43,411 bases of DNA from a virus (IMGVR_UViG_2541047907_000004:1-43411), one strand, 5' to 3'. Shown: positions 1,009 through 41,722, counted from the stretch's first letter. Notes: generated from the letters alone by a model not told the origin. Program-made: numbers and translations.

Positions 1009-1083
1009 GTCCTCTTAGTTAAATGGATATAACGAGCCCCTCCTAAGGGCTAATTGCAGGTTCGATTCCTGCAGGGGACACCA
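1009..1083 (+). tRNA. argW: tRNA-Arg (anticodon CCU), argW
   Basis: 75-nt sequence GTCCTCT...CCTGCAGGGGACACCA; acceptor stem GTCCTCT pairs with AGGGGAC; T-loop TTCGATT; anticodon loop cCTCCTAAg gives anticodon CCU; encoded 3' CCA. Confidence 0.95.
1069..1083 (+). repeat. attL core: 15-bp CTGCAGGGGACACCA, the 3' end of argW, repeated exactly at attR
   Basis: Exact 15-bp direct repeat at 1069-1083 and 41708-41722, bracketing all phage genes; integrase adjacent. Confidence 0.75.
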
Positions 1084-1244
1084 TTTATCAGTTCGCTCCC
1101 ATCCGTACCAGTCCGCAAAATCCCCTGAATATCAAGCTTTCCGTAGATTTACAGTTCGTAATGGTTCGCGTCAGATCGTTGACAGCCGCACTCCATGACG
1201 GGTAAAAAGTGGATAAAATAATTTTACCCACCGGATTTTTACCC

Positions 1245-2402
1245 ATGCTCACCGTTAAGCAGATTGAAGCAGCAAAGCCGAAAGAAAAACCATACCGCCT
1301 TCTCGATGGTAATGGCCTGTACCTTTATGTCCCTGTATCAGGGAAAAAGGTATGGCAACTTCGCTACAAGATTGACGGTAAGGAGAAAATCCTGACTGTC
1401 GGAAAATATCCGCTTATGACTTTGCAGGAAGCAAGGGATAAAGCATGGACCGCGAGGAAAGACATCTCGGTTGGCATCGATCCGGTAAAGGCGAAAAAGG
1501 CTTCGTCTAACAACAATTCATTTAGTGCGATTTACAAGGAATGGTACGAGCACAAGAAGCAAGTCTGGTCAGTAGGCTATGCAACTGAACTTGCCAAAAT
1601 GTTTGATGACGACATTTTACCCATCATCGGCGGTCTTGAGATTCAGGATATTGAGCCGATGCAACTGCTGGAAGTAATCCGCAGATTTGAAGATCGCGGT
1701 GCAATGGAGCGAGCCAACAAAGCCCGCAGAAGATGCGGCGAGGTTTTCCGTTACGCTATTGTCACCGGCAGGGCTAAATATAACCCGGCACCTGACCTTG
1801 CTGACGCCATGAAGGGGTACCGCAAGAAGAACTTCCCGTTTCTTCCTGCAGACCAGATCCCGGCATTCAATAAAGCACTAGCAACATTTTCAGGAAGTAT
1901 CGTATCGCTCATTGCCACCAAGGTTTTACGCTACACTGCCCTAAGAACGAAAGAGCTTCGTTCCATGCTATGGAAGAACGTCGATTTTGAAAACAGGATT
2001 ATCACCATCGACGCCAGTGTGATGAAAGGACGCAAAATTCATGTGGTCCCGATGTCAGACCAGGTGGTTGAACTTCTCACTACGTTAAGCTCCATCACCA
2101 AACCAGTATCAGAGTTTGTTTTTGCCGGGCGCAACGATAAGAAGAAGCCAATCTGCGAAAATGCGGTACTGCTTGTGATCAAACAAATCGGCTATGAAGG
2201 TCTGGAAAGCGGTCACGGATTCAGGCATGAATTCAGCACGATTATGAACGAGCACGAATGGCCTGCTGACGCTATTGAAGTGCAACTGGCACATGCCAAC
2301 GGCGGATCTGTGCGTGGGATTTACAACCATGCTCAGTATCTCGATAAGCGCAGAGAAATGATGCAGTGGTGGGCGGATTGGCTTGATGAAAAGGTGGAGT
2401 AA
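1245..2402 (+). CDS. intS: Tyrosine integrase, P4-like family (IntS-like)
   Basis: 385-aa protein from ATG 1245 (MLTVKQIEAAKPKEKPYRLLDGNGLYLYV...), matching my memory of K-12 IntS; the longest ORF begins at GTG 1209; C-terminal catalytic region with conserved R...HxxR...Y pattern; directly downstream of argW. Confidence 0.9.
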   Translation: MLTVKQIEAAKPKEKPYRLLDGNGLYLYVPVSGKKVWQLRYKIDGKEKILTVGKYPLMTLQEARDKAWTARKDISVGIDPVKAKKASSNNNSFSAIYKEWYEHKKQVWSVGYATELAKMFDDDILPIIGGLEIQDIEPMQLLEVIRRFEDRGAMERANKARRRCGEVFRYAIVTGRAKYNPAPDLADAMKGYRKKNFPFLPADQIPAFNKALATFSGSIVSLIATKVLRYTALRTKELRSMLWKNVDFENRIITIDASVMKGRKIHVVPMSDQVVELLTTLSSITKPVSEFVFAGRNDKKKPICENAVLLVIKQIGYEGLESGHGFRHEFSTIMNEHEWPADAIEVQLAHANGGSVRGIYNHAQYLDKRREMMQWWADWLDEKVE

Positions 2403-2432
2403 TCCACCTGAACCACTATCGGAATAACACAA

Positions 2433-2462
2433 AGCCCTGCACTCCAGTGCAAGGCTTATTTA
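2433..2462. terminator. Putative bidirectional intrinsic terminator between convergent intS and tailspike genes
   Basis: Imperfect hairpin agccctgcact/agtgcaaggct flanked by an A-run upstream and tatttatt downstream. Confidence 0.4.
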
Positions 2463-2465
2463 TTG

Positions 2466-4547
2466 TCAATTTATTGATAACATTTGCGCATTTGTCCCAA
2501 TTTTTGCAAATGTTGCAACTTTCCATGATGCGCCAGCAATGTCATTGCCTGAAATTGTAATTATATTGCCATCAGTTCCTGGTGCTTTGTTATTACCGAT
2601 AGTAGTCTTACCATCAATGTTTATTATTGTAATTTTCTGCCCTGGTGAGATGTAACGAAGTCTAGACAGCGTTGTATTCGATGCTTGGCTGATTGTTGCT
2701 TGTGATGTATGGGTTACTACAGGAGCCACACCAGTTATTGTATTAAAAGAACTTCCCGTCCCCCTAAACATTACACCAAAGTATATATTTTGTGTGCATA
2801 TAATCAATCTATCACCAACACCGGGGTATATTAATGATGGATCATACGCCATTTTATAGTTATTTGTTTCATGATATGTATTTTTTAGTAACAACACCTC
2901 AGCGCCAGATCCAGCTTTAACTCGCGGAGGTGTAGAGCAATAAAAATCAGCATATGATAGTAGGTCGAACATATAAGATGTAACTAAACTATTTGGATGT
3001 TCGATATCAACCCCACCTTCAAAGAATATGCTACCTGAACTTGTGCAAAAAGCTGTTCTTGGCTGCTGAGGTGATGAATTTATGTTTCTATATTTAAACG
3101 ATCCCATTACTGTAAGTGCCGCTTCTCCTGAAGACTGAAGACATGCTTGCTTAATTACCCCTTGCTGATTTGCAGTGATGTTTATGATGCCAAACTTGAC
3201 GTCAGTCCCAGCACCAACGCACAATATATTGTATGCACTAGGATCTTGACCAGGACCGGTGAAATTGGCATTGACATCACACACGCAGTTAACAGACCCA
3301 ACTGATCCTGTAGCACCATCTAAGAAATAAGAAATAGAAGAAAGACCAATACCGGATATACTCTCTATTCTAAAACCTGCTGTAGTATGAAGTTTTACTG
3401 GTGAGCACGCCAGAGGAGAGCCATCTACATATATTTCACCACAATAAAAACCCTTACCATGGCCATTTGTGTACAATGCATGACCTTCATGACCTTGCGA
3501 TGCAGTGATGTTTTTGTGATAAATACTACCTATGCGCTGATTATCAAATACAACTCCAAATACCCCGAAATCAACAGTATTAAAAATAGCTTTATCTATT
3601 TTCGCAGACACTCCTGTGAACCACACACCAGCAATAAACCCATAAACATCAATTGTATCTATATAGAACCCTGATACATCTCTATTTTCGTAATAATTCA
3701 TCCAAATTGACGCCCCATAAGATTTCCAGTCTCCAGATGTGACGTATGAATAACCGAGGGTGTTACTGCTTATAACAGCCGTTCTATCACCATTGTACTC
3801 AAACTTCCAGTATCCGAGCATTTTAACACGTGGCGTACGTACCTCAAATACAGGATACCCCCACAGCAATTGCTCAAAGATAGCATTATCAGAAATTAGA
3901 ACCATGTCAGGATTTGGAATTATAATCCACCCAGATATAGTGTATTTTAGATTTCCAAATTCTATTCTCTTTGCACCGCTATTTAGAGCAGCATTAATTG
4001 CTGCCATATCAGCAATGTAATCGCCAACACCAATAGAACCATGTTCTGCAAAGTCGGTAACAGATACTGTTTCTGAGTTTTTATCGTGTTGTGTACGTAG
4101 AACTGAGCCAACGAAAGGTTGCTTAACGCCAAGCATTGCATCACCTTTCGAGTCATCTTCAGCATATACTCCTGTTTGGGATAACTGCTGAAGAAGATTT
4201 GGTCCGAACTGATCAGGGTCATACTTCAGCACATTAGGAAAATAGAACTGCTGCGCACCATATGCATCATAAACAGCCATCGAATGACCTTGCACGGTTA
4301 CAAACTTGGCAATCTGTCCGTTATATACAGGATAACCAGCAGCGTTGATAACTATTGGCTGCGCCACCTGAACATGAGAGCCATCTTCTCGTTCCAGATA
4401 TACAGGGATCTGGTTTTCTGGATTTACCGGGTCAGTGTCAATTTTACCGATATAAATTTTGCCATTGGCAACCGCTTTAAAAGAACGCGCCATAGTGAAG
4501 AGTTGCGATGGCATACTCACTACAACATTGGCTGTAATGTCTGTCAT
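2466..4547 (-). CDS. Tailspike protein: P22 gp9-like N-terminal head-binding domain plus a divergent receptor-binding/enzymatic domain
   Basis: 693 aa; N-terminus [50 protein letters not shown]... closely matches remembered P22 tailspike N-terminus; the remainder is G/S/T/N-rich beta-helix-like and not P22-like. Confidence 0.85.
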
Positions 4548-4604
4548 TTAATTTGCTCCAGATACAAGGAATCGCCGCAGCATGGCGACGGTGAATTTTG
4601 GGCA

Positions 4605-4630
4605 TAAAAAAACCCAGCCGAAGCTGGGTC
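4605..4630 (-). terminator. Intrinsic terminator downstream of ant (minus strand)
   Basis: Hairpin cccagc-cgaa-gctggg; on the minus strand it is followed by a T-run (the A-run at 4605-4612 on the plus strand). Confidence 0.5.
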
Positions 4631-4647
4631 GTTGCGTTGGTTATCTG

Positions 4648-5571
4648 TCAGTAGTTATGTACTGAAGGAGGTAATTCTTTATTCTTAAGTCTCATCCATG
4701 CGGAAAGATTCGTTGGTCCGTCTGGCTCATTAATATCAACATCTCGTGTGTGATTGATTAAAACGTCTCTCGCCATTCCGATAACATACGAGAATTCATG
4801 ACCGTAGTCGTAGCATCTGCCGGAATAGTTCGATTGAATTTGTTTTAATGCCGGATACAGTTCGCGGAATAATGCCTGTGAGCGGTTGGCATAATCCCAT
4901 AACCATACAAGGCTGTTTGCTTCTTTTGCAGAAAGCTCGTTTGCCTTCTTCTCTTGTTTGCCGATGAACTCACCTTCAAGTGGAACTCGAGCTGCAAGTG
5001 ACAGTGCTTCTGTAAACTGCTCCTCACTGATTTCTTTGTACGAACATCCAAAATGGGATTTCAGTGACGACCACATGGTGATCATCGCCTTCGCCTGTTT
5101 TTCTTTTGGCAGAGACTGACCGCGACTCATGACGAGTTGTTTAATGGTTTCCTGCTGTTCAGTGGTGATTTTACCCGGCAACGCCTTTTTAGCTTTGCGC
5201 GGGTTAACTACATGGCCTTTAGTCCAGTATTCGTAGAGCACATCGTCACACTCTTCCTGATACTGGATTACCTTGTCGCGGATTTCAGGGCGGACTTTGT
5301 TAGGGCTGATGGTTTGCAGCCAGCCATTCAGTTTACGTAAAGCAAGGCAAATCATGGTCTGCACACCGCCAACTGAAGGTATTGCGATTTCCACAATACC
5401 TTTAGCAAATCTTTGTTTTAACTTTGTAAACTGTGAAGCCCAATCCATACCCATACCTTCAACGATAGGTTTCATTGGGGTGTACGGCTCACCGTTGTGA
5501 TTGACAACATAAAGCTCTGCGCCGTGGAATGGTACATTGATAGTAGATACTGCTGTTGCTATACTTTTCAT
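4648..5571 (-). CDS. ant: Antirepressor (Ant-like; AntA N-terminal plus KilAC-like C-terminal organisation)
   Basis: 307-aa ORF immediately downstream of arc and upstream of the tailspike, the position of P22 ant; sequence-level assignment is from gene order and general antirepressor features, not exact recall. Confidence 0.6.
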
Positions 5572-5640
5572 GTCGTTAATTCCTATGCGTGGTTTTACGA
5601 TACCGAAGCCCTGACTGTTCCAGCAGTTGGGGCTTCAACT

Positions 5641-5802
5641 TTACGCGCCAATGCGCCCTTCCTTCTTAAAGCTTTCCATTACTCTCTGATAAATCTCAGA
5701 GTTAACAGACCGACCATTCTCTTCCGCCACCTTGCGGACCAAATCCAATACTTCTTTAGGCCACCGCAAATTGAACTGCGGCATTTTGCTCATTCCTTTC
5801 AT
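5641..5802 (-). CDS. arc: Arc repressor (ribbon-helix-helix)
   Basis: 53 aa MKGMSKMPQFNLRWPKEVLDLVRKVAEENGRSVNSEIYQRVMESFKKEGRIGA, essentially the remembered P22 Arc sequence; the ORF-track ORF extends upstream but the Arc start is ATG at 5802. Confidence 0.9.
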   Translation of the reverse strand: MKGMSKMPQFNLRWPKEVLDLVRKVAEENGRSVNSEIYQRVMESFKKEGRIGA

Positions 5803-5818
5803 ATTCACCTCACAATAT

Positions 5819-5865
5819 GGGTCCACCGTGGACCTATTGAGAATATAGTAGAGTGCTTCTATCAT
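5819..5865. promoter_or_regulatory. immI control region: Mnt operator palindrome (gggtccaccgtggacct, 5819-5835) and Arc operator (atagtagagtgcttctatcat, 5845-5865) between divergent arc and mnt
   Basis: Perfect inverted repeat GGTCCACCGTGGACC and the 21-bp ATAGTAGAGTGCTTCTATCAT motif, both matching remembered P22 Omnt and Oarc. Confidence 0.75.
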
Positions 5866-5892
5866 GTCAATACACTAACTTGGAGTGATGGC

Positions 5893-6147
5893 ATGGCTAG
5901 AGATGATCCGCACTTTAACTTCCGTATGCCTATGGAAGTAAGGGAGAAATTAAAATTCAGGGCGGAGGCGAATGGGAGATCAATGAACTCCGAGTTGTTA
6001 CAAATCGTCCAAGATGCTCTATCAAAACCATCGCCTGTGACTGGCTATCGCGACGAAGCTGAACGCTTGGCTGATCAGCAGGCAGAGCAGTTCAAGACTG
6101 TTGTGTTTGAGACACTTAAAAAGATTTATGGCAAGGATGATAAATAA
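5893..6147 (+). CDS. mnt: Mnt repressor (maintenance of lysogeny; ribbon-helix-helix)
   Basis: 84 aa MARDDPHFNFRMPMEVREKLKFRAEANGRSMNSELLQIVQDALSKPSPVTGY..., matching remembered P22 Mnt; divergent from arc. Confidence 0.9.
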   Translation: MARDDPHFNFRMPMEVREKLKFRAEANGRSMNSELLQIVQDALSKPSPVTGYRDEAERLADQQAEQFKTVVFETLKKIYGKDDK

Positions 6148-6683
6148 TGCTGCACACAATTCATTTCTTATGCCCCGTTAACACCGCCACTGTTGGGCAA
6201 CTTCAGAACCACTGTCTCACCGCATTATCTCAAGGCGCAACTGAATTAAATATCCATATATCAAGTCAGGGAGGGGAAACTGCCGCTGGTTTTACTGCGT
6301 ATAACTTTCTTAAGTCACTCCCTGTTGCCGTTAGAACTCACAACATAAGCAATGTTGAATCCATAGCTAATATCGTTTTCCTGGCTGGCTCAGAACGTTT
6401 CGCAAACCCATTATCAAGATTCCTGTTACATCCTCTATTATGGGGCTTTGCCACCCCAGCCGCCGACCATGCCAGATTGAGAGAGTACGGGAAATGCCTC
6501 GATAACGATCTTGATCGCTTCGTTGAGACGTTCAATATCGACATCGGAACCCATATTAGGTGGGCATCCCTGATAGCAGACTCGACCATTTTGGATGCTA
6601 ACAAGGCTCTTGAGCATGGCATAATTAATTCCATAAAAACTGCAAGGCTGGTATCCAATCAGGCAAACTGGTGGGTTGTTTGA
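6147..6683 (+). CDS. ClpP-like (S14 family) serine peptidase-fold protein, translationally coupled to mnt
   Basis: 178 aa; ATG overlaps the mnt stop (TAATG); blocks HISSQGG, ISNVESIANIVFLAG and SRFLLHPLLWG align with ClpP YINSPGG, GQAASMGAFLLTAG and SRVMIHQPLGG (from memory), with Ser and His at triad positions. Confidence 0.6.
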   Translation: MLHTIHFLCPVNTATVGQLQNHCLTALSQGATELNIHISSQGGETAAGFTAYNFLKSLPVAVRTHNISNVESIANIVFLAGSERFANPLSRFLLHPLLWGFATPAADHARLREYGKCLDNDLDRFVETFNIDIGTHIRWASLIADSTILDANKALEHGIINSIKTARLVSNQANWWVV

Positions 6684-6760
6684 TGGGTAAATCATGATTA
6701 CTCCTATGGCCGGAAAGATTCGCATCCTTAAATTTAGTGAGCAAGGATTACCATCACACC

Positions 6761-6946
6761 TCAACAGCTTCCGCGTCCCTGAGTAATTCTGTCGCGGATT
6801 TGCTTCTTACGGTGGTTTAAGCTGGAGAGCTTGGCTTCTGCTTCTGATATTTGCGCATCAAGATCTTTAAGCTCAAGATCTGAAAGTCGCTGGTCAAGCA
6901 GGGTTTGGTTCAACTCAATGTTGTTCAGGCGTTCTTCTATGGTCAT
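6761..6946 (-). CDS. Small coiled-coil protein (61 aa), unknown function
   Basis: ATG preceded by AGGAG RBS; sequence MTIEERLNNIELNQTLLDQRLSDLELKDLDAQISEAEAKL... has heptad-like repeats; convergent with the ClpP-like gene. Confidence 0.4.
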   Translation of the reverse strand: MTIEERLNNIELNQTLLDQRLSDLELKDLDAQISEAEAKLSSLNHRKKQIRDRITQGRGSC

Positions 6947-7087
6947 GATTTCTCCTTGTTGAGGTTGATGTGAAACGATTGATTGTATACGCACTCTTTT
7001 GTTAGCTAGTAGCTTTGCTTAATCGCAAGATAAAGTTTCTGATTAATCCCTAAAAATCAAAAAATAAAGTTAAAACAGGTACATGAT

Positions 7088-7291
7088 ATGGAATGGATCA
7101 TAGGATTTGTTGTTCTTATCTTCATAGCCAGTATGTTTAAACCAAGAAGTTGCGATATCTGTGGTGCTGGATTTAAGAAAAAGTACTTCACATGGACTAT
7201 CGATGGAAAGAAACAGCATCTTTGTCCGTACTGCAACAGTAAAATGGAGAGACGCAACAGCGATAGACGCTTTAAGGATCGATTTGGTTAA
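7088..7291 (+). CDS. Small membrane-anchored zinc-ribbon protein (67 aa), unknown function
   Basis: N-terminal hydrophobic segment IIGFVVLIFIASMF followed by CxxC...CxxC (CDICGAG...CPYCNS); followed by a strong terminator. Confidence 0.45.
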   Translation: MEWIIGFVVLIFIASMFKPRSCDICGAGFKKKYFTWTIDGKKQHLCPYCNSKMERRNSDRRFKDRFG

Positions 7292-7306
7292 CCATTTTAT
7301 CTCCAA

Positions 7307-7337
7307 CAAAAAAACCCACCTGACGGTGGGTTTTATT
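7307..7337. terminator. Bidirectional intrinsic terminator (acccacc-tgac-ggtgggt, A-run upstream, T-run downstream)
   Basis: Perfect 7-bp stem, 4-nt loop, flanked by aaaaaaaa and ttttatt; serves convergent genes 7088-7291 (+) and 7336-7755 (-). Confidence 0.7.
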
Positions 7338-7755
7338 AGTGCTTGTATAGGTTGAACTCTCTATCAAGCCATATAACAAAAAATGTCGATCCAAGACGAT
7401 AACCAACCATGGCTTTCAAATCATCAAATCTAAAAGCCAAGAAATGATCTACGTCTTCCGTTATATGACCGGGGATACCAGCTTTAATTGCACCCCTTGC
7501 AATCTTCTCAAATCCAAGCTTATGCCTACCTTGCTGCTTAATCTCTGCCCATGTTAGTTGACTTAATCTGTATAATTTATCAGCTAAGCCAGCTTTCTCA
7601 TCTTTTTGGCATTTCGTTATGCAGTGAGAGCTTTGGATGTAACAGAATGAAAATTTCGGTTTCTTTTGATCTGAATTCCCCCCTGACTGCGGCCCTAACT
7701 TTAACTTACCTGTAGATTCAGCAGGGGGGATAATCCTTTTAGATTTTCTTGCCAT
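7336..7755 (-). CDS. Unknown 139-aa protein downstream of and coupled to the DUF4065 gene; candidate toxin/effector
   Basis: ATG at 7755 lies 4 nt after the upstream gene's stop; basic N-terminus, C-x6-C-x3-C cluster, beta-rich C-terminus ending ...GYRLGSTFFVIWLDREFNLYKH; the ORF also has an upstream in-frame start at 7830 overlapping the neighbour. Confidence 0.45.
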   Translation of the reverse strand: MARKSKRIIPPAESTGKLKLGPQSGGNSDQKKPKFSFCYIQSSHCITKCQKDEKAGLADKLYRLSQLTWAEIKQQGRHKLGFEKIARGAIKAGIPGHITEDVDHFLAFRFDDLKAMVGYRLGSTFFVIWLDREFNLYKH

Positions 7756-7759
7756 CTCG

Positions 7760-8209
7760 TTAGTTAATCCGAGTTGCAAAGTACTCTGCCATCTCCTTAG
7801 AGCTAATTTCAGAACCACCAACACCCTCAATATAGTTTGATCTCCATGGTGACTCTTCGTGTGTCATGTTCCTCAGTTTCCAGGCAGAAAATTGCCCAAA
7901 AACATCCCAGACTTCTTCTAATAGCTCTAACTGTTCTTCGCTGAATTTTTCAGCATCAAAAGACTCTGGAGAAGGGATAGCTCCATTACCATATTGTTTA
8001 TAACGGCGATAAAGCTCAGGGACAACAGGGCCATGCATCCAAGCTTCCATCTTATTCTGAAAAAGAGGCTCACCAAGCAACGCCAATGAAAACCCCTGAG
8101 CATAGTAAACAAGCTTTTGTAATTTTAAATTAGAGATTGTGTCACCGCTATCCTCGTCACACCGCGACAGGAAGTAGTCGGCGACATCAAAACAAGTAAG
8201 CATGAACAC
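7760..8209 (-). CDS. DUF4065 / Panacea-domain protein (GepA/SocA-like), candidate antitoxin
   Basis: 149 aa; GGAGG RBS 5 nt upstream of ATG; motif block NLKLQKLVYYAQGFSLALLGEPLFQNKMEAWMHGPVVPELYRRYKQYG matches my recollection of the DUF4065 family signature. Confidence 0.65.
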   Translation of the reverse strand: MFMLTCFDVADYFLSRCDEDSGDTISNLKLQKLVYYAQGFSLALLGEPLFQNKMEAWMHGPVVPELYRRYKQYGNGAIPSPESFDAEKFSEEQLELLEEVWDVFGQFSAWKLRNMTHEESPWRSNYIEGVGGSEISSKEMAEYFATRIN

Positions 8210-8577
8210 ACCTCCATCTTGATAGCCACAGCTAAGTATCCAACTATGTCAAATGTCATTTAATACTATAACAAAGCTATCAGCAATCCTTCGGAGGCTA
8301 ACTTACAACCACTTTAGCGACATGTTTAAACCATTACGTTTCACATTTACTGCATTTTCGCCGAAGTTACCTATAAGGTAATGTCACATTTCCTGCAAGT
8401 TTCATGCAATGTTGAAAAGTGAGCTATTCACTTTTCTATGACACTAAACACCAAAAATAGCACTTTTTGCTAAATCATTCGTCCAAGTTGTGGATGGTTT
8501 GTCGTTGACACGTTTTCACACACCACTCCACCAATAAAGTATCATCTGGTATCCTGCTCAAAACTAAGGAGGTTGGT

Positions 8578-31310: not shown

Positions 31311-31383
31311 GACTTCCCTCTCTCCCAAATAAAAAGGCCTGCGATTACCAGCAGGCCTGTTATTAGCTCAGTGATGTAGATGG

Positions 31384-32516: not shown

Positions 32517-32518
32517 GT

Positions 32519-33800: not shown

Positions 33801-33809
33801 TGGAATGTC

Positions 33810-34796: not shown

Positions 34797-34827
34797 CAGC
34801 CTCACAACTCTAAAACACACAACAATA

Positions 34828-34856
34828 ACCCGACCTTAGCGTCGGGTTTTCTTTTT
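34828..34856 (+). terminator. Intrinsic terminator downstream of cI
   Basis: Hairpin acccgac-cttagc-gtcgggt followed by tttcttttt. Confidence 0.7.
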
Positions 34857-34921
34857 CCAAAATATAAACCTATTAAATACAAAGCGTTATAAAAAACTAA
34901 TTATATTTAGAACATTTTGTA

Positions 34922-34950
34922 TTGACTCGATAAAGTACAAATCGTACTAT
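34922..34950 (+). promoter_or_regulatory. Candidate pL promoter (-35 TTGACT, 17-bp spacer, -10 TACTAT)
   Basis: Hexamers at 34922-34927 and 34945-34950 upstream of nutL and N; GTAC-containing half-sites in the spacer may be operator elements. Confidence 0.45.
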
Positions 34951-34989
34951 TTAGCCATCAGCAGGACGTACTAACCACCATGAAGGTGA

Positions 34990-35020
34990 TGCTCTTAAAA
35001 ATTTAGCCCTGAAGAAGGGC
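34990..35020 (+). promoter_or_regulatory. nutL (boxA-like TGCTCTTAA and boxB hairpin GCCCTGAAGAAGGGC)
   Basis: Matches remembered lambda nutL boxA/boxB; located in the leader upstream of N. Confidence 0.8.
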
Positions 35021-35130
35021 AGCATTCAAAGCAGAAGGCTTTGAGTAGCGCGAAATGCAGCTGCAAGACAGCAACCGTGGAGATAAGCATCACGGCGCGT
35101 TACTCAAAGCTAACTGACAGGAGAATCCAG

Positions 35131-35457
35131 ATGGATGCACAAACACGCCGCCGCGAACGTCGCGCAGAGAAACAGGCTCAATGGAAAGCAGCAAATCCCC
35201 TGTTGGTTGGGGTAAGCGCAAAACCAGTTAACCGCCCTATTCTCTCGCTGAATCGCAAACCGAAATCACGAGTAGAAAGCGCACTGAATCCGATAGACCT
35301 TACGGTGCTGGCTGAATACCACGAACAGATTGAAAGCAACCTGCAACGTATTGAGCGCAAGAATCAGCGCACATGGTACAGCAAGCCACGCAGTGAAATG
35401 GGGGTGACTTGTGTTGGTCGCCAGAAAATGAAATTAGGCAGCAAACCACTTATTTGA
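35131..35457 (+). CDS. N: Antitermination protein N
   Basis: MDAQTRRRERRAEKQAQWKAANPLLVGVSAKPVNRPILSLNRKPKSRVESALNPIDLTVLAEYH... matching remembered lambda N; AGGAGA RBS. Confidence 0.9.
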   Translation: MDAQTRRRERRAEKQAQWKAANPLLVGVSAKPVNRPILSLNRKPKSRVESALNPIDLTVLAEYHEQIESNLQRIERKNQRTWYSKPRSEMGVTCVGRQKMKLGSKPLI

Positions 35458-35465
35458 GGTGATAT

Positions 35466-35552
35466 ATGGAAGAAGAATTTGAAGAGTTCGAAGAGCATCC
35501 GCAGGATGTGATGGAACAATACCAGGACTATCCGTATGACTACGACTATTGA
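35466..35552 (+). CDS. Possible 28-aa acidic micro-protein (MEEEFEEFEEHPQDVMEQYQDYPYDYDY)
   Basis: ATG 6 nt downstream of GAGGTGA, immediately after the N stop; overlaps the ral start by 17 nt; not in the ORF track because of its size. Confidence 0.3.
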   Translation: MEEEFEEFEEHPQDVMEQYQDYPYDYDY

Positions 35553-35736
35553 TAAGAATCAATGGTGTGGACAATTCAAACGATGCAATGGATGCAAGCT
35601 GCAATCGGAATGCATGGTTAAGCCTGAAGAAATGTTTCCTGTAATGGAAGATGGGAAATATGTCGATAAATGGGCAATACGAACGACGGCAATGATTGCC
35701 AGAGAACTTGGTAAACAGAATAACAAGGCTGCCTGA
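35536..35736 (+). CDS. ral: Restriction alleviation protein Ral
   Basis: 66 aa MTTTIDKNQWCGQFKRCNGCKLQSECMVKPEEMFPVMEDGKYVDKW..., matching remembered lambda Ral. Confidence 0.8.
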   Translation: MTTTIDKNQWCGQFKRCNGCKLQSECMVKPEEMFPVMEDGKYVDKWAIRTTAMIARELGKQNNKAA

Positions 35737-35775
35737 TGGTGGCCTTTATTTTTGGCACTAACAACAGAGGCTAAC

Positions 35776-36072
35776 ATGGAATTTAAAGGTACTGAAGGTA
35801 AGTGGGAAATAATGATGGATGGCGATGAGATTAAAATCATCCAGGCAGACTCTCTTGAAAATGGCACAGGCTGGCGTTCGTATATTGCAATCTGTGAGGA
35901 AGTTCAATGCATTGAAGATGCCAATCTAATAGCGGCAGCACCTGACCTTCTCGAAGCACTTCAGTTATTACTTAAGCAATCCAAAAATAGAACAACGACA
36001 ACATATCCAGAATGGTATGGAGCTGTTAATAAAGGTCTCGCAGCAATCAGAAAAGCCATAGGTGATGAGTAA
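35776..36072 (+). CDS. Hypothetical early protein (98 aa)
   Basis: ATG 5 nt downstream of AGAGG; contains a NLIAAAPDLLEAL-type motif seen in many enterobacterial phage proteins of unknown function. Confidence 0.5.
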   Translation: MEFKGTEGKWEIMMDGDEIKIIQADSLENGTGWRSYIAICEEVQCIEDANLIAAAPDLLEALQLLLKQSKNRTTTTYPEWYGAVNKGLAAIRKAIGDE

Positions 36073-36230
36073 TGAATAAGAAATACATTGTTGAAGTTAT
36101 AGATCGAGAAACGAAAGAAGTAATTAAACATTTCGAATTTGATAATTATAGAAAAGCTGACCGCGTCGAAGAAGGATTGTTGCGACAAAGTAATCTCGAA
36201 AAATTTGATGTTGTCATGCGATGCGAATAA
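36072..36230 (+). CDS. Hypothetical small protein (52 aa)
   Basis: ATG overlapping the upstream stop (TAATG); found by manual translation. Confidence 0.35.
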   Translation: MNKKYIVEVIDRETKEVIKHFEFDNYRKADRVEEGLLRQSNLEKFDVVMRCE

Positions 36231-36323
36231 GCGCCTATAGCAGATTTGCGAGTCTGCTATGTGAGCAATGTCGCTCGTAACTAAACAGGAGCCGACTTGT
36301 TCTGATTATTGGAAATCTTCTTT

Positions 36324-36350
36324 GCCCTCCAGTGTGAGGGCAATTTTTTT
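36324..36350 (+). terminator. Intrinsic terminator-like hairpin within the early-left operon
   Basis: Hairpin gccctc-cagtgt-gagggc followed by aattttttt, upstream of the 36363 gene. Confidence 0.45.
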
Positions 36351-36362
36351 GACGGAGGATAT

Positions 36363-37331
36363 ATGAGTGAAGTAACAGATTTAGTTGTTATTGAAAAAGC
36401 AAATGCAATGACTGTATTTCAGTCTGCCGACCAGATTGAAGAAATCCTTCAAAGGGTTGAACGTGAAGTTATGTCCTTTGTGCCTGATATCACAACGGCA
36501 AAGGGCAGAAAGGAGATCGCTTCTCTGGCGTATAAAGTTGCGCAGACGAAAACATATCTCGATGGTCTTGGCAAAGACCTTGTTGCTGAACTGAAGGAAA
36601 TTCCAAAGCTAATTGATGCCAACCGCAAGACAGTGCGTGATCGCCTTGATGAGCTGAAAGCCAAGGCGCGCCAGCCTCTTACTGATTATGAGGAGGAACA
36701 GGCACGGATTAAAGCCGAAGAAGAAGCTAAGGCAGCAGCTGAAGCTCTCGCAAAGCAAATTGAGTCTGACCATGAAATAGCGATTTTGATGGATCGCGAA
36801 TTTGACCGCCAAAGAGAAGAGGCAAGACTCAAAGCGGAGCGGGAAAAGCGAGAGCATGAAGAACGCTTAAAAAGAGAAGCTGAAGAGAGAGCCAGAGCAG
36901 AAGCCGAAGCAAAGGCAAAAGCCGAAATTGAAGCAGCAGCAAGGCGAGAAGCAGAAGCTAAGGCCGCAGCGGAACGTGCAGAGCGTGAACGCATTGAAGC
37001 CGAGCAACGAGCACAGCGCGAAGCAAAAGAGGCAGCAGAACGAGCTGAAAGAGAAAAGCAGGCGGCAATTGAAGCAGAACGCCGAAAAGCACAGGAGGAG
37101 GCTGAACGAATCCGGCGCGAGGCTGAAGCAAAAGAGCAAGCCAGAATAGCAGAAGAAAAAAGAATCAAGGAAGAAGAAGAGCGTAGAGCAAAGGATAAAG
37201 CTCACCGGAAAGAAGTAAATAACAAAATACTTGCTGACCTTATCAAGGTTGGTGCATCAGAAGATGTTGCTAAAAATATCATAACAGCCATCGTAAAAGG
37301 CGAAGTATTCGCAACAAAAATAACCTACTAA
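36363..37331 (+). CDS. Hypothetical protein with long low-complexity E/A/R/K-rich helical region (322 aa)
   Basis: ATG downstream of GGAGG; N-terminal globular region, central repeats (AEREKREHEERLKREAEERARAEAEAKAKAE...), C-terminal globular region. Confidence 0.55.
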   Translation: MSEVTDLVVIEKANAMTVFQSADQIEEILQRVEREVMSFVPDITTAKGRKEIASLAYKVAQTKTYLDGLGKDLVAELKEIPKLIDANRKTVRDRLDELKAKARQPLTDYEEEQARIKAEEEAKAAAEALAKQIESDHEIAILMDREFDRQREEARLKAEREKREHEERLKREAEERARAEAEAKAKAEIEAAARREAEAKAAAERAERERIEAEQRAQREAKEAAERAEREKQAAIEAERRKAQEEAERIRREAEAKEQARIAEEKRIKEEEERRAKDKAHRKEVNNKILADLIKVGASEDVAKNIITAIVKGEVFATKITY

Positions 37332-37355
37332 TAAAACCAACATAAGGAACCACCC

Positions 37356-37487
37356 ATGATTTACGCAATCGCGGGAGGCGCTCGCATGGGTGCCTTCCAA
37401 TTAAATGAATCTTTACTTGAACGAATCACCCGTAAATTACGTGACGGATGGAAAAGAGTTGAGGTCTTATTATGCGCAATGAAATAG
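37356..37487 (+). CDS. Hypothetical small protein (43 aa)
   Basis: ATG downstream of AAGGAA; found by manual translation. Confidence 0.3.
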   Translation: MIYAIAGGARMGAFQLNESLLERITRKLRDGWKRVEVLLCAMK

Positions 37488-37624
37488 CCATCAATCACCA
37501 GATGCTTCGTGCTGCACAAAACAAAGCAGTAATAGCCAGATTTATTGGTGATTCCAAAATGTGGCTTGAAGCAAATAAAGCGATGAAATCAGCTATCAAC
37601 CTTCCGTGGTATCGCAGGAAATGA
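37472..37624 (+). CDS. Kil-like small protein (possible host division inhibitor)
   Basis: 50 aa MRNEIAINHQMLRAAQNKAVIARFIGDSKMWLEANKAMKS...; the FIGD..KM..EA motif resembles my recollection of lambda Kil; weak assignment. Confidence 0.4.
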   Translation: MRNEIAINHQMLRAAQNKAVIARFIGDSKMWLEANKAMKSAINLPWYRRK

Positions 37625-37779
37625 GTTTTACAGATAACTGGTCAGACGAAGAATTCATTCGTCAGATGAAAGAATTAATCGGTAACGAAGGAGATATTCA
37701 TGTCACTTGCAACCACAGTGAAGGAGAGCAAGTTACAGAGACGCATGTACACGCAGAAAGCTCTCTGGTATCGCCATAA
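37621..37779 (+). CDS. Hypothetical small protein (52 aa) just upstream of erf (Arf-like position)
   Basis: ATG overlaps the upstream stop (ATGA); found by manual translation. Confidence 0.3.
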   Translation: MSFTDNWSDEEFIRQMKELIGNEGDIHVTCNHSEGEQVTETHVHAESSLVSP

Positions 37780-37880
37780 TGGTGACCGCGAAGGAATGCG
37801 GGTATGCCTTAATTTGTCCAGAGTCGAAGTATTAAACCAGCGTTATTTCCTTGGGCCGTGTCCATTCTGAGAACAATCAT

Positions 37881-38486
37881 ATGAGCAAAGAATTTTACGC
37901 AAGACTGGCAGCTATTCAGGAGAATCTGAACGCGCCAAAGAATCAGTACAACTCATTCGGCAAATATAAATACAGAAGCTGCGAAGATATTCTTGAAGGC
38001 GTTAAGCCGTTACTGAATGGTCTGTTTTTATCAATCAGCGATGAAGTTGTGTTGATTGGTGATCGGTATTACGTGAAAGCCACGGCAACTATTACCGATG
38101 GCGAAAACAGTCATACGGCAACCGCTCTTGCACGAGAGGAAGAAAGCAAGAAAGGAATGGATTCTGCACAAGTTACGGGAGCTACAAGCTCTTATGCACG
38201 CAAGTATTGCCTCAATGGTTTGTTCGGCATTGATGATGCGAAAGATGCAGATACCGACGAGCATAAACATCAGCAGAACGCAGCAGCAAAGCAATCAAAA
38301 CCATCACCTACACCTGAACAGGTTCTAAAAGCATTCACTGACGCAGCATTGCAGAAAAACACCGTGGAAGAGCTTAAACAGGCGTTCGCCAAAGCGTGGA
38401 AGATGCTCGAAGGCACACCTGAGCAGCACAAAGCGCAGGACGTTTACAACATCAGACGAGACGAATTAGAAGGAGCGGCTGCTTAA
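37881..38486 (+). CDS. erf: Erf single-strand annealing recombinase
   Basis: From MSKEFYARLAAIQENLNAPKNQYNSFGKYKYRSCEDILEGVKPLLNGLFLSISDEVVLIGDRYYVKATA..., matching remembered P22 Erf. Confidence 0.9.
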   Translation: MSKEFYARLAAIQENLNAPKNQYNSFGKYKYRSCEDILEGVKPLLNGLFLSISDEVVLIGDRYYVKATATITDGENSHTATALAREEESKKGMDSAQVTGATSSYARKYCLNGLFGIDDAKDADTDEHKHQQNAAAKQSKPSPTPEQVLKAFTDAALQKNTVEELKQAFAKAWKMLEGTPEQHKAQDVYNIRRDELEGAAA

Positions 38487-38869
38487 TGGCACATTCGATT
38501 ACTGTAAGACTAAACAAGCCCACAAGAGAGTTTCAGGCAGGGGAAAATATCGGATTCAACATCCGTGCTGGCGTTCAGTATTACGATCGCCAGACAAAAA
38601 AGAAAGAATGGACAAACTACAGCGCCGTTGTATTTGCCAAGCCTGGAGCGCAAGCGGATTACTACCGTAGTGTTCTTGTTGAAGGTGGCATTGTGGAAAT
38701 TACCGGAGAAAACATCAGGGTTGATGTTTATCAGGGGCAAAATGGTCAATCAATCACTCTTGAATTACTGAATGCAAAGATTGGATTTGCAACTTCAGGA
38801 AACAGCCAACAGCAACAAAGTAGCAATCATCAAAATCATCCTGAATACGACGATTCAATTCCCTTCTAA
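38486..38869 (+). CDS. Phage single-stranded DNA-binding protein (short SSB with C-terminal acidic tip)
   Basis: 127 aa; start overlaps erf stop (TAATG); OB-fold-like pattern and C-terminal ...PEYDDSIPF resembling the SSB DDDIPF tail. Confidence 0.6.
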   Translation: MAHSITVRLNKPTREFQAGENIGFNIRAGVQYYDRQTKKKEWTNYSAVVFAKPGAQADYYRSVLVEGGIVEITGENIRVDVYQGQNGQSITLELLNAKIGFATSGNSQQQQSSNHQNHPEYDDSIPF

Positions 38870-38892
38870 ATTAGCAAAATAAGGATTCCATT

Positions 38893-39186
38893 ATGCCAGC
38901 GCCTCTGTATGGTGCGGACGACGCGCGCCGCTGTTCCGGCAATTCCGTATCGGAGGTGCTGGATAAATTCAGAAAAAACTACGATCGGATAATGTCGCTA
39001 CCACAGGAAACGAAAGAGGAAAAGGAATTTCGCCATTGCATATGGCTTGCAGAGAAAGAAGAACGCGAGCGAATTTACCAGACATCAATCCGACCATTCC
39101 GCAAAGCCACATATACCCACTTCCCTGAAATTGACCCGCGCCTGCGTAATTACCGCTCACGCTATGGCGCTATCAGTAATGACTGA
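38893..39186 (+). CDS. abc2: Anti-RecBCD protein Abc2
   Basis: 97 aa [63 protein letters not shown]... matching remembered P22 Abc2. Confidence 0.8.
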
Positions 39187-39196
39187 GGAATTTACC

Positions 39197-39364
39197 ATGA
39201 GAGGACTTGCATACAATCCCGGCATTCTTCCGGCAGAAATGATTATTCGCCAACGCGTAAAGCCAATGCCATCGAGAGAGGAATTGCTTAAGAGAAATTC
39301 TTTTCCGTCAGTAAATCAAAACAAATATCTGAATGCGATGTGGCGCAAAGGAGGCAAGCAGTGA
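39197..39364 (+). CDS. Hypothetical small protein (55 aa)
   Basis: ATG downstream of GAGGAA; stop overlaps the next gene's GTG start. Confidence 0.35.
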
Positions 39365-39660
39365 GTGTATGTCTTATTGATAAACGTCGACGTGGGCAAC
39401 AAATACCATCTGTTGGAATGCCGAATCACACATGGTTTTGCGTACTTGATATCGATGGTATGGATGCGTTGGTTGACACTCGTCATTACTGCGATACCGC
39501 AACAGCTACTCCGGCGAAAGCAAAGAAAATGGCTGCTCTGATAGAAAACTGGACTCCACCTGATGGTTGGTGCAATGGGAATGATCGAGATTGGCATGAA
39601 AAAATGAAGGGCTATATCTGCGATTTCTTACGTAAATGCAACGGCTTCAGGGTGATGTGA
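39361..39660 (+). CDS. Hypothetical protein (99 aa, Cys/Trp-rich)
   Basis: GTG start 7 nt downstream of AAGGAGG; translationally coupled to the upstream small ORF. Confidence 0.45.
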
Positions 39661-39661
39661 T

Positions 39662-40245
39662 ATGACCAAATTAACTATCAGGCACTGCGTGAAGCGGCAG
39701 AAAAAGCAACGTGGGGAGACTGGGACTCATATAAACCACACCGTGGCGCACGTGGTTATGAGGTCCGACTAAGTAGTCAGGCCATTGCGCAACACGTTCT
39801 GAAAAACAACGCTGAATTTATTGCTGCCTTTAATCCAAAGGTTGCTTTGGCACTACTGGATGAACGGGAAAGGAACCAGCAATACATCAAACGCCGCGAC
39901 CAGGAGAACGAGGATATTGCGCTAACGGTAGGGAAGCTGCGTGTTGAGCTGGAAGCCGCAGAGAAGCGCATTGCAGAACTGGAAGCACGGGAAATAAAAC
40001 CAGCCAGAGGTGAAGTTCTTGTCGTTGTATCTGGTTTTACTGGTTGCGGGAAAAGCACCATTGCCGGGGAAATAGAAATTGCGATGAAAGCTATTGGTGT
40101 GCCGGTTCAATGGACTAATGTCGATGCAGAAAAGCGTATGAGCGGCGCTGACTGGCTGACAGCGATTGAGATGTACAAACCAAATGTGCGCATCGTGGAA
40201 GTTAATGTGCCACGCGTCGCTGGCATTCGCATCAAAGGAGAGTGA
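39662..40245 (+). pseudogene. Ead/Ea22-like gene with apparent 5' frameshift (no in-frame ATG)
   Basis: Long open frame (YDQINYQALREAAEKATWGDW...RIAELEAREIKPARGEV...) starts with no ATG; the only nearby ATG (39662) is in the +1 frame and stops after 36 codons; an extra A in the A3 run would put ATG in frame. Confidence 0.4.
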
Positions 40246-40246
40246 T

Positions 40247-41026
40247 ATGGGCGCTATAACCAAAGAACGTATCAAATTATTCATTAAAAATCCGCTTGAT
40301 AACGGACTTACTCGTGGCGAACAAATGGAACTGGCACGAATTGCGCTGGCATCGCTGGAAGCAGAGCCAACAGGTGCATTCCACATTGCTGAACAGCAAG
40401 TTGACGGCACAAGTGACTATCTCAAGGATGGAGAATGGCCTATTGATAATGGGATTATTGAAGTCTACGCCGCTCCGCCAGTACCGGTAGTACCTGCTGC
40501 ATTACCTGAGAACGACGATGAGGACGGGCATGACATTGATTATCTTGAGCCATCTGAAGTTTACGCGCTTGGGCGAACAGCTGGCTGGAACTCCTGCCGC
40601 GCCGCCATGCTTCAGGCCGAACCTGTAAGTAATAGTGATGAGTTACCGCTGGACTATCTGCAAGGACACAAAGACGGCCTGGAGTGGGCTGCACAATTGG
40701 CAGAAGCCAATCATCCGCAAACAGGTGACTGGTTGTACGACGACTCAATCGATCTTGCCAGGGCGATTCGCAAAGGTCCGGATATGCCTACTGTTCAGGG
40801 TGGCAATTCTCCGGTAACTCCGGATGGTTGGATAAGCTGTAGTGAGCGAATGCCGGATACCAAAACAGCCGTTCTTGTTGCCGTGGAGTTTGACAGGAAA
40901 GGTGACTGGCGAATGAAATGGGCGACTTATATCCCGGGGCATCCTGACGCTAATGATGGGTGGTTAATTCCTGGTGCGTCGTGGAAACCGTCACACTGGA
41001 TGCCGCTACCAGAGCCTCCACTTTGA
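40247..41026 (+). CDS. DUF551-domain protein
   Basis: 259 aa from ATG 40247; C-terminal block PDGWISCSERMPDTKTAVLV...WKPSHWMPLPEPP fits the DUF551 signature as I recall it. Confidence 0.6.
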   Translation: MGAITKERIKLFIKNPLDNGLTRGEQMELARIALASLEAEPTGAFHIAEQQVDGTSDYLKDGEWPIDNGIIEVYAAPPVPVVPAALPENDDEDGHDIDYLEPSEVYALGRTAGWNSCRAAMLQAEPVSNSDELPLDYLQGHKDGLEWAAQLAEANHPQTGDWLYDDSIDLARAIRKGPDMPTVQGGNSPVTPDGWISCSERMPDTKTAVLVAVEFDRKGDWRMKWATYIPGHPDANDGWLIPGASWKPSHWMPLPEPPL

Positions 41027-41122
41027 AAGCGAAGCTTATACATATCTTTTACATCAGCAATCTATTGTTAATCTCCAATCAATGTTACGTTGTCATCTCT
41101 CTCATGCTTTGGAGGTAGTGAT

Positions 41123-41302
41123 ATGTCTTGTCCAAAATGCGGTTCTGGAAATATTGCAAAAGAAAAAACAATGCGTGGATGGTCTGGTGATTATGTGTGC
41201 TGCGATTGCGGATACAACGACTCTAAAGACGCATTTGGAGAGCGTGGTAAAAACGAGTTTGTTAAAATTAATAAAGAACGCGAAGGCAACGAAAAAAGCT
41301 AA
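41123..41302 (+). CDS. Small zinc-ribbon protein (59 aa)
   Basis: ATG downstream of GGAGG; CPKCGSG...CCDCGYND four-cysteine motif. Confidence 0.45.
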   Translation: MSCPKCGSGNIAKEKTMRGWSGDYVCCDCGYNDSKDAFGERGKNEFVKINKEREGNEKS

Positions 41303-41366
41303 TTTATTTATTCATATATGAAAACAATGTAACCAATATTCGAATTGAAGAACTGAAAGAACACCA

Positions 41367-41390
41367 AGCCGCCTGATGGCGGTTTTTTCT
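41367..41390 (+). terminator. Intrinsic terminator upstream of torI
   Basis: Hairpin agccgcc-tgat-ggcggtt followed by tttttt. Confidence 0.6.
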
Positions 41391-41398
41391 TGCCTGAT

Positions 41399-41414
41399 TT
41401 GCAGGTTCGATTCC
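41399..41414 (+). repeat. 16-bp copy of the argW T-arm segment (TTGCAGGTTCGATTCC), inside the prophage upstream of torI
   Basis: Exact match to tRNA positions 1054-1069, the segment immediately 5' of the att core in the tRNA; here separated from the attR core by 293 bp. Confidence 0.6.
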
Positions 41415-41433
41415 CTATTCGGAGATAGCACTC

Positions 41434-41634
41434 ATGCAACACGAACTACAGCCTGATTCCCTGGTTGATTTGAAATTCATCATGGCCGATACTGGCTTTG
41501 GTAAAACCTTCATCTACGACCGGATTAAGTCCGGCGACCTGCCAAAAGCCAAAGTTATCCACGGTCGAGCAAGATGGTTATATCGTGACCATTGTGAATT
41601 CAAAAATAAACTCTTAAGCCGCGCCAATGGGTAA
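41434..41634 (+). CDS. torI: Excisionase / recombination directionality factor TorI (AlpA-family winged helix)
   Basis: 66 aa MQHELQPDSLVDLKFIMADTGFGKTFIYDRIKSGDLPKAKVIHGRARWLYRDHCEFKNKLLSRANG, matching remembered K-12 TorI; located next to attR. Confidence 0.85.
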   Translation: MQHELQPDSLVDLKFIMADTGFGKTFIYDRIKSGDLPKAKVIHGRARWLYRDHCEFKNKLLSRANG

Positions 41635-41707
41635 AATAGCGGGTAAAATATTTCTCACATCTAAAAAACACCATTCCAGTCAATCCCCTGCCGCTTCAAG
41701 TAGATGT

Positions 41708-41722
41708 CTGCAGGGGACACCA
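41708..41722 (+). repeat. attR core (CTGCAGGGGACACCA)
   Basis: Exact 15-bp repeat of the tRNA 3' end including CCA. Confidence 0.75.

Follow-up and report, generated by a model that had tools for sequence, protein, structure and literature searches.

The site-specific recombination module of KplE1 (CPS-53), a defective prophage of Escherichia coli K-12, is highly conserved in the phages CUS-3, HK620, and Sf6 as well as in APEC-O1 and UTI89 prophages, and transcription of the integrase gene is uncoupled from that of the recombination directionality factor (RDF) gene in all of those carriers (Panis et al. 2010). The RDF of KplE1, TorI, is 100% identical to HkaC and Sf6 gp18 (Panis et al. 2012). 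In Kapi1, Sf6, HK620, and KplE1, the phage attachment site (attP) is located between int and xis, and these genes hence lie at either end of the prophage (Pick et al. 2022). The GenBank records of Sf6 and HK620 likewise carry an attP core annotated between int and the torI homolog. The location of the genes for integrase and RDF at opposite ends is a published hallmark of the module (KplE1, HK620, Sf6, CUS-3, and Kapi1), inducible representatives of which already exist as isolated phages; functional phages with this module have been known for two decades. We analyzed a stretch of viral DNA of 43,411 nucleotides (IMGVR_UViG_2541047907_000004:1-43411; the whole stretch is referred to as the window), which an original prediction made from the sequence alone had described as an intact relative of KplE1.

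Positions 1069 to 41722 of the window represent a Lederbergvirus-like prophage, a P22-like podovirus of the Sf6/HK620 type, that carries a KplE1-type recombination module. We assign this identification a probability of roughly 0.9, a figure that refers to what the element and its module are and does not extend to the activity of the module or the phage. The prophage is approximately 40.6 kb in length (one core copy plus the interior), or approximately 39.3 kb when an insertion sequence (IS) is subtracted. Because the flanks consist of yfdC and of cscB of the sucrose locus, the host is a sucrose-positive (csc) E. coli strain, with the insertion in the 3' end of argW. The module and its flanks, in which 611R6 denotes the prophage-derived phage vB_EcoP-611R6, are as follows.

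1 to 933: yfdC flank; three amino acids off K-12, protein the same as in the 611R6 host
1009 to 1083, plus strand: argW, tRNA-Arg(CCU) (ARAGORN; Rfam tRNA, 63 bits), the sole tRNA found
1069 to 1083: attL core CTGCAGGGGACACCA, at the 3' end of argW
1084 to 1244, plus strand: attL P' arm, overlapping the intS promoter (from alignment and motif positions)
1179 to 1184 and 1203 to 1208: -35 (TTGACA) and -10 (TAAAAA) boxes of the intS promoter, PintS, both conserved; the -10 box lies inside an arm-type repeat
1200, 1211, 1222, and 1237: arm-type GGGTAAAA-like repeats in attL
1245 to 2402, plus strand: intS, tyrosine integrase, 385 amino acids; starts 161 nucleotides after argW
2432 to 2457: bidirectional terminator hairpin with an 11-pair stem, in the gap between intS and the tailspike gene; right-hand limit of K-12 homology
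41366 to 41385, plus strand: intrinsic terminator directly upstream of torI; 8-pair stem followed by a T run
41434 to 41634, plus strand: torI, RDF, 66 amino acids; ends 73 nucleotides before the attR core
41629 to 41707, plus strand: attR P arm; its two GGGTAAAA arm-type repeats (41629 and 41641) overlap the end of torI
41708 to 41722: attR core CTGCAGGGGACACCA, followed by the csc sucrose locus flank, matching the 611R6 host
42164 to 43411, minus strand: cscB of the sucrose locus, 100% identical to cscB of the 611R6 host

The core sequence CTGCAGGGGACACCA occurs exactly twice in the window, with approximately 0.07 copies expected by chance even at two mismatches. The duplicated core comprises 15 of the 16 nucleotides of the published CTGCAGGGGACACCA(T), the core of KplE1 being stated as CTGCAGGGGACACCAT (Panis et al. 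2010), and is identical to the attP core annotated in the Sf6 and HK620 records. The attL arm aligns with those of K-12, Sf6, HK620, and 611R6 at a mean column identity of 96%, and the aligned blocks containing the two att arms are 96 to 97% identical to K-12 DNA. In KplE1, attL contains two blocks of TorI sites (GTTCG/GATCG/GTCCG), five in all, of which I4 and I5 adjoin the -35 box (Panis et al. 2010). All five pentamers so defined are present here (GTTCG at 1091, GTCCG at 1111, GTTCG at 1154, GTTCG at 1164, and GATCG at 1174), and the last of them abuts the -35 box. The three substitutions that separate this attL arm from that of K-12 all fall between the pentamers and none within them.

The two recombination proteins are of the KplE1 type on alignment, as originally predicted. 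IntS is identical to K-12 IntS over all 385 amino acids (4 differences from the Sf6 protein and 5 from the HK620 protein; the PGAP label on its matches is "prophage integrase IntS"), and TorI is identical over all 66 amino acids to K-12 TorI, Sf6 gp18, and HK620 HkaC. The predicted positions and orientations were also correct: intS lies next to argW at attL, in the same orientation as argW, and is transcribed away from it into the prophage, and torI lies some 40 kb away at attR, at the end of the pL operon, as the last gene on the strand shared with cI, N, and the early-left genes. Relative to its K-12 counterpart, intS has 39 nucleotide differences (38 synonymous codon changes and 1 change in the stop codon), and torI has 6 (4 to 7 across relatives), all of them silent. 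Approximately three-quarters of random nucleotide changes would alter the protein. Since these 39 and 6 differences from K-12 entail no amino acid change, intS and torI are under strong purifying selection, and hence functionally constrained, even in the defective K-12 prophage. Divergence from K-12 amounts to 1.9% in yfdC and 3.4% in intS, and the cassette copies of the window prophage and K-12 are not recent clonal descendants. Among 5,426 complete E. coli genomes, the argW-intS segment was found in 1,862 and the torI-attR segment in 1,405.

Between the arms, the virion gene order terS-terL-portal-scaffold-coat-gp4-gp10-gp26-gp14-gp7-gp20-gp16, followed farther on by the tailspike gene, extends along the minus strand between 22683 and 2466. 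All of the virion and packaging proteins are full length, and most are 97 to 100% identical to those of Sf6, HK620, or 611R6; the exceptions are the gp20-type protein and the N-terminal 40 amino acids of the gp16-type protein (both mosaic) and the receptor-binding part of the tailspike. The interior as a whole is a mosaic, covered 49% by Sf6 (at approximately 97% identity), 44% by 611R6, and 41% by HK620 (60% combined); by aligned coverage, Sf6 is the best single-genome match of this mosaic genome (49% at 97%). In the 5,426 complete E. coli genomes, no locus covers at least 80% of positions 2300 to 9000, and no phage record covers at least 80% of either half of the prophage. An identical tailspike protein is recorded in NCBI assembly GCA_000460595.1 (scaffold KE701865.1), with the same context.

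The prediction that a complete phage genome lies between the two ends holds for the gene content, but it did not mention an IS629 element that splits ninI, so that the genome is not strictly intact. The features concerned are the following.

26214 to 26690, minus strand: C-terminal fragment of ninI (Ser/Thr phosphatase), whose N-terminal fragment lies at 28001 to 28198
26691 to 28000, plus strand: IS629 (IS3 family), 1,310 bp, antisense to the pR transcript

The element has inverted repeats of 25 nucleotides and a GAA target duplication (26688 to 26690 and 28001 to 28003), is 99.5 to 100% identical to annotated IS629 copies, and contains an ALIL frameshift pseudoknot (27026 to 27142). The split of ninI is evident from blastn alignments to Sf6 35015 to 35707 and 34520 to 35019.

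The published KplE1/HK620 mechanism would be directly transferable to this prophage, given the identity of the proteins and the conservation of the sites. In the circular genome, the attP core would lie between torI and intS, so that integration would leave intS by attL and torI by attR. A promoter of its own within attL would sustain continuous, low-level synthesis of IntS, and this promoter is predicted to be repressed by IntS itself and also by TorI. In the lysogen, cI, with its helix-turn-helix (HTH) and self-cleaving S24 peptidase domains, would silence pL. Upon SOS-induced cleavage of cI, N-antiterminated transcription from pL would pass the terminator at 41366 to 41385 and torI would be expressed; this dependence of torI on both the loss of cI and antitermination by N is suggested by the gene order. 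In the HK620 annotation, a cII-dependent promoter, pI, is located just upstream of the torI homolog. TorI would then bind the GTTCG/GATCG/GTCCG sites of attL and, together with IntS (and IHF in published assays), drive excision between attL and attR, such that the production of an RDF not cotranscribed with the integrase would be the trigger of excision. On these grounds, the prophage is very probably competent for excision.

A second direct repeat, derived from the T arm of argW, is present close to the cores.

1054 to 1069: T-arm 16-mer TTGCAGGTTCGATTCC, copy 1, within argW and directly before the core
41399 to 41414: T-arm 16-mer TTGCAGGTTCGATTCC, copy 2, just upstream of torI

Only 0.02 exact copies of the 16-mer would be expected in the window by chance, compared with the two found. 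Copy 2 is unchanged in K-12, Sf6, HK620, and 611R6, and the 16-mer lies upstream of the torI homolog, or at the end of the record, in K-12, Sf6, HK620, 611R6, N7, and CUS-3; in the HK620 record, it falls inside the annotated pI promoter with its cII box. At attR, the last 30 nucleotides of argW are thus represented as two halves (the 16-mer and the 15-nucleotide core) that are 293 bp apart, the intervening DNA consisting of torI and the P arm, and this arrangement is invariant in the same six genomes. No tRNA similarity was found upstream of the 16-mer near torI, where the local score was below the shuffle mean. The 16-mer includes GTTCG, which is the TorI recognition pentamer and also a near-universal T-loop motif. 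It is conceivable, if rather unlikely, that the RDF cassette was inserted into a once-continuous block of tRNA homology in an ancestral attP, and/or that the T-arm copy acts at the torI promoter as an additional TorI site or a regulatory element. If the copy does act as a TorI site, the specificity of the RDF would be linked to the tRNA target.

Two other readings of the element concern its ancestry and its ends. The original prediction placed the prophage in the KplE1 lineage, possibly as an undecayed representative of the stock from which the K-12 element decayed. In keeping with this, IntS, TorI, attL, and attR match those of K-12 exactly or almost exactly, at the same chromosomal site, and K-12 does retain only a remnant of about 10 kb (CPS-53 is annotated as 10,215 bp). 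However, blastn (task blastn, E ≤ 1e-5 and 1e-10) aligned only positions 1 to 2457 and 41384 to 41722 of the window with the K-12 locus, which corresponds to 4.2% of the prophage, and gtrA/B/S, tfaS, yfdK-L, and yfdM-T had neither a blastn match nor a tblastn match from any of the 315 window open reading frames (ORFs) of at least 40 amino acids. The homology stops sharply at or within terminator hairpins (2457 is the end of the hairpin after intS, and 41384 falls in the 3' part of the hairpin at 41366 to 41385), a pattern expected of cassette exchange between phages. The KplE1 interior (positions 3758 to 12260 of the K-12 locus sequence) is instead covered by SfIV (68% at 93% identity), SfV (61%), and SfII (49%; identities ranging from 92 to 93%), and PhiR29- and mEp460-type phages match its yfdM-T part at 97 to 98%; the real intact relatives of that interior are therefore phages of these types, and SfIV/SfV-type phages in particular, rather than the window prophage. 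KplE1 also has tail-fiber assembly genes, to which, judging from the structure of the P22-like virion, tailspike-bearing P22-like phages have no counterpart. That the prophage is an undecayed representative of the KplE1 lineage is thus highly improbable. What stands of the lineage claim is the KplE1 type of integrase, RDF, and both att arms, although the phage interior is unrelated; KplE1 and the window prophage have in common the integration cassette only. As to the ends, the 16-mer could be the true att core, which would put the right-hand end of the element at 41414 and leave torI outside. The 16-mer does occur as an exact direct repeat (1054 to 1069 and 41399 to 41414), and the CUS-3 record (CP000711.1) labels it as "attL core" and "attR core" and ends there, hence without torI. 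Against this, the virion genomes of Sf6 and HK620 include the torI homolog, with the attP core between it and int; the KplE1 core is CTGCAGGGGACACCAT (Panis et al. 2010); attP of Kapi1, which is reported to equal the KplE1 core plus one 5' A, has int on one side and xis on the other, and, as a test, the 17-bp putative attB was precisely deleted (Pick et al. 2022); and the IntS arm-type repeats sit between torI and the 15-nucleotide core. On the strength of the virion genomes of Sf6 and HK620 and of the work published on KplE1 and Kapi1, the 16-mer was rejected as the real att core, and there is very little chance that it is one. The same evidence indicates that the ends of the CUS-3 record were probably assigned to the wrong direct repeat, which would explain the omission of torI. 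We therefore retain the reading of a P22-like prophage bounded by the 15-nucleotide core, with a recombination module that appears to be a mobile, terminator-bounded cassette (limits at 2457 and 41384) common to unrelated phage backbones.

A further alternative accepts this identity but holds that the prophage excises and yet cannot form plaques, either because IS629 blocks or reduces expression of Q or because of an unseen lesion. Several points weigh against a fully active phage. IS629 separates Q from the replication genes and is oriented antisense to pR transcription, a position in which it could be polar on Q expression, and it adds 1.3 kb to a genome packaged by the headful mechanism. 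No virion-derived copy of the exact genome, and no isolated phage carrying it, was found in the collections searched, and the sequence tools applied would not reveal point defects in operators, pac, or promoters. The sites, identities, and gene content are observed, and the activity of the module and the phage is deduced from them. Conversely, IS629 inserted cleanly, duplicating 3 bp of the target and deleting nothing, and all of the remaining genes are full length. ninI is dispensable in lambda, and Sf6, a known plaque-forming phage, has IS911 inside ninG, likewise antisense to the nin genes, so that the IS629 insertion is a caveat and no proof of a defect. We consider a plaque-negative prophage possible but doubtful, and the ability to form plaques somewhat favored.

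The convergent stops of intS (2402) and the tailspike gene (2466) are separated by 63 nucleotides that hold only the terminator, in agreement with the prediction that int abuts the tailspike end of the late operon without gtr or oac genes. Indeed, no gtr/oac/wzy-type gene was recognized in the whole prophage, since none of its proteins has more than one membrane-span-like segment, and none of the 20 prophage proteins scanned against Pfam belongs to a conversion-gene family. Conversion of the O antigen by an unrecognized gene, as reported for Kapi1, may nevertheless occur. Relatives carry a gene in this interval (i.e., oac in Sf6, hkcF in HK620, an O-acetylase gene in 611R6, neuO in CUS-3, and gtrABS in K-12), the annotation of hkcF being that of an oligosaccharide repeat unit polymerase with similarity to the O-antigen polymerase of Shigella flexneri. 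The layout with the integrase gene next to the tailspike gene and no conversion genes is not unusual: in E. coli E50 and its sister strains, too, intS of the argW prophage is directly followed by the tailspike gene, and phage N7 has only one ORF of 107 amino acids between int and the tailspike gene.

2466 to 4547, minus strand: tailspike, 693 amino acids; P22-type head-binding domain (PF09008) at amino acids 1 to 113 (E = 7.6e-66)

The receptor-binding part of the tailspike (beyond approximately amino acids 205 to 230), which has no Pfam family, gave no tblastn match in 50,697 phage records, and even a sensitive blastn search of the 5,426 complete E. coli genomes found no match to the DNA from 2403 to 4150 (approximately amino acids 133 to 693). 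Among 5.8 billion proteins, this part is common to approximately 16 clusters, some of which carry other N-terminal adaptor domains (PF18668 and PF03906). Given this rarity, the tailspike probably confers an unusual O-antigen specificity.

The remaining genes of the interior are listed below in order of their coordinates.

4648 to 5571, minus strand: ant antirepressor (immI), P22_AR_N and P22_AR_C domains
5573 to 5640, plus strand: sar antisense RNA, between arc and ant (Rfam RF00262, 81 bits)
5641 to 5802, minus strand: arc repressor, 53 amino acids (translation; PF03869)
5893 to 6147, plus strand: mnt repressor, 84 amino acids (translation; Repressor_Mnt family)
6147 to 6683, plus strand: Clp-protease-fold protein, 178 amino acids, moron (PF00574, E = 6.8e-12)
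7336 to 7755, minus strand: 139-amino-acid partner of the next protein, toxin candidate (phrog_8366; weak NsnC match)
7760 to 8203, minus strand: Panacea-domain (SocA-like) putative antitoxin, 147 amino acids (PF13274, E = 1.9e-24)
8578 to 8907, plus strand: hkcB homolog, 109 amino acids, one membrane-span-like segment; 96% identical to HK620 and 97% to 611R6
8908 to 11028, minus strand: gp16-type ejection protein; 99% to 611R6 gp16
11028 to 12404, minus strand: gp20-type ejection protein; 74% to Sf6 gp12
12414 to 13106, minus strand: gp7-type ejection protein; 99% to Sf6 gp11
13109 to 13567, minus strand: gp14-type protein
13564 to 14412, minus strand: gp26-type tail needle
14412 to 15830, minus strand: gp10-type protein
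15839 to 16321, minus strand: gp4-type protein
16296 to 16481, minus strand: small Sf6 gp6 homolog
16524 to 17795, minus strand: coat protein
17807 to 18691, minus strand: scaffold protein
18705 to 20831, minus strand: portal protein
20834 to 22246, minus strand: terminase large subunit, 100% identical to Sf6 gp2
22243 to 22683, minus strand: terminase small subunit, 97% to a 611R6 gene (phrog_309, E = 2e-68)
22686 to 22928, minus strand: DUF2560 protein, 100% to Sf6 gp67
23157 to 23699, minus strand: Rha-family regulatory protein, Phage_pRha and ORF11CD3 domains
23902 to 24375, minus strand: Rz, with embedded Rz1 at 23955 to 24140; 94 to 96% to Sf6 gp63 and gp64
24428 to 24931, minus strand: lysozyme with one N-terminal hydrophobic segment (PF00959)
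24903 to 25106, minus strand: holin (phrog_20)
25705 to 26223, minus strand: late antiterminator Q of the phage 21/Sf6 type, 98% to Sf6 gp59
28176 to 31328, minus strand: nin region with ninH, ninG, an HNH endonuclease gene (28956 to 29522), ninF, ninE, a PAPS-reductase-like gene, and ninB
31671 to 32534, minus strand: DnaC/IstB-like helicase loader
32519 to 33364, minus strand: O-type initiator
33397 to 33690, minus strand: cII
33810 to 34025, minus strand: cro
34095 to 34796, plus strand: cI repressor, HTH and complete S24 peptidase domain
35131 to 41302, plus strand: pL operon with N (35131 to 35457), ral, an Sf6 gp33 homolog, cIII, kil, the Erf recombinase gene (37851 to 38486), abc2, an Ea22-like gene, a DUF551 protein gene (40166 to 41026), and an eaG homolog (41123 to 41302)

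The ejection genes are further backed by phrog_917 and by Pfam families on the called genes, and the two replication genes by PF04492 and PF01695. The proteins encoded from 13109 to 16481 are full length and 97 to 100% identical in amino acids to Sf6 gp6 to gp10, and among them the gp4-, gp10-, gp26-, and gp14-type proteins are those of head completion and the needle. The coat, scaffold, and portal proteins are full length and 99 to 100% identical to those of Sf6, HK620, and 611R6. All of immI is present (mnt, arc, sar, and ant), whereas the HK620 annotation reports only remnants of mnt and ant. No tRNA genes are present between Q and the holin gene (25107 to 25704), where Sf6 has tRNA-Asn and tRNA-Thr.

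Several of the accessory genes can be described further. The Clp-like gene, which also occurs in some other E. coli P22-like prophages, has a start that overlaps the mnt stop (translational coupling) and is therefore probably expressed in the lysogen; the closest solved structure to its product is PDB 9uxt, "Clp protease" (E = 4.5e-35), and the protein had no PADLOC match. The Panacea antitoxin and its 139-amino-acid partner are likely to form a toxin-antitoxin or defense moron between the ejection genes and immI. This pair is also annotated in E. coli E50 and is present in many E. coli prophages, and a PDB sequence search with the toxin candidate gave no match. PADLOC analysis of ten moron or unassigned proteins revealed no convincing defense system, the matches being weak ones to NsnC (the toxin candidate) and PbeC (a 77-amino-acid ORF) and ones to SspD and BrxP that reflect the PAPS-reductase fold. 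The PAPS-reductase-like protein of the nin region (30001 to 30933, minus strand; phrog_33262) is the one matched by SspD (E = 2e-14). PAPS-reductase-like genes are common in lambdoid phages.

The window prophage is thus a further example of a well-known type, the split placement of whose integrase and RDF genes is already explained in the literature. The question originally raised gains little from it, the module, its split placement, and its regulation having already been dissected experimentally, but the prophage provides a handy natural case of the IntS/TorI cassette moving among unrelated phage backbones. With Sf6, it shares TerL, the portal, scaffold, and coat proteins, and the gp4-, gp10-, gp26-, gp14-, and gp7-type proteins (94 to 100% identical), as well as Q, Rz/Rz1, N, ral, gp33, cIII, and kil (again 94 to 100%), and both have an IS3-family insertion in the nin region (IS911 in ninG of Sf6 and IS629 in ninI here). 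It differs from Sf6 in the receptor-binding domain of the tailspike, in having nothing at the position of oac, in its full immI (mnt, arc, sar, and ant), Clp-like gene, and Panacea pair, and in terS, cI/cro, the O and DnaC-type replication genes, and the holin and lysozyme genes. HK620 and 611R6 have the same module and the same virion gene order, with gp16-type and hkcB proteins that are 94 to 99% identical, and 611R6 also has the same yfdC-argW...csc context; the tailspikes, immunity, and replication modules of these two phages differ from those of the window prophage. Kapi1, which is experimentally active and alters the O antigen (Pick et al. 2022), is similarly a P22-like temperate phage at argW with a tailspike that is unique beyond the head-binding domain and with no recognizable O-antigen modification gene, but its DNA covers only approximately 29% of the left half of the window prophage. 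The backbone of SfIV, SfV, and SfII is not shared with the window prophage. Finally, K-12 KplE1 resembles the prophage in the argW site, the 15-bp core, the five TorI sites and PintS in attL, the arm-type repeats in attR, and the separate transcription of integrase and RDF genes at opposite ends. In contrast, KplE1 is a 10.2-kb remnant with gtrABS, tail-fiber fragments, and yfdM-T, a core of 16 bp, and dsdC at the attR flank, whereas the window prophage is a 39-kb P22-like genome with a core of 15 bp and csc at that flank.

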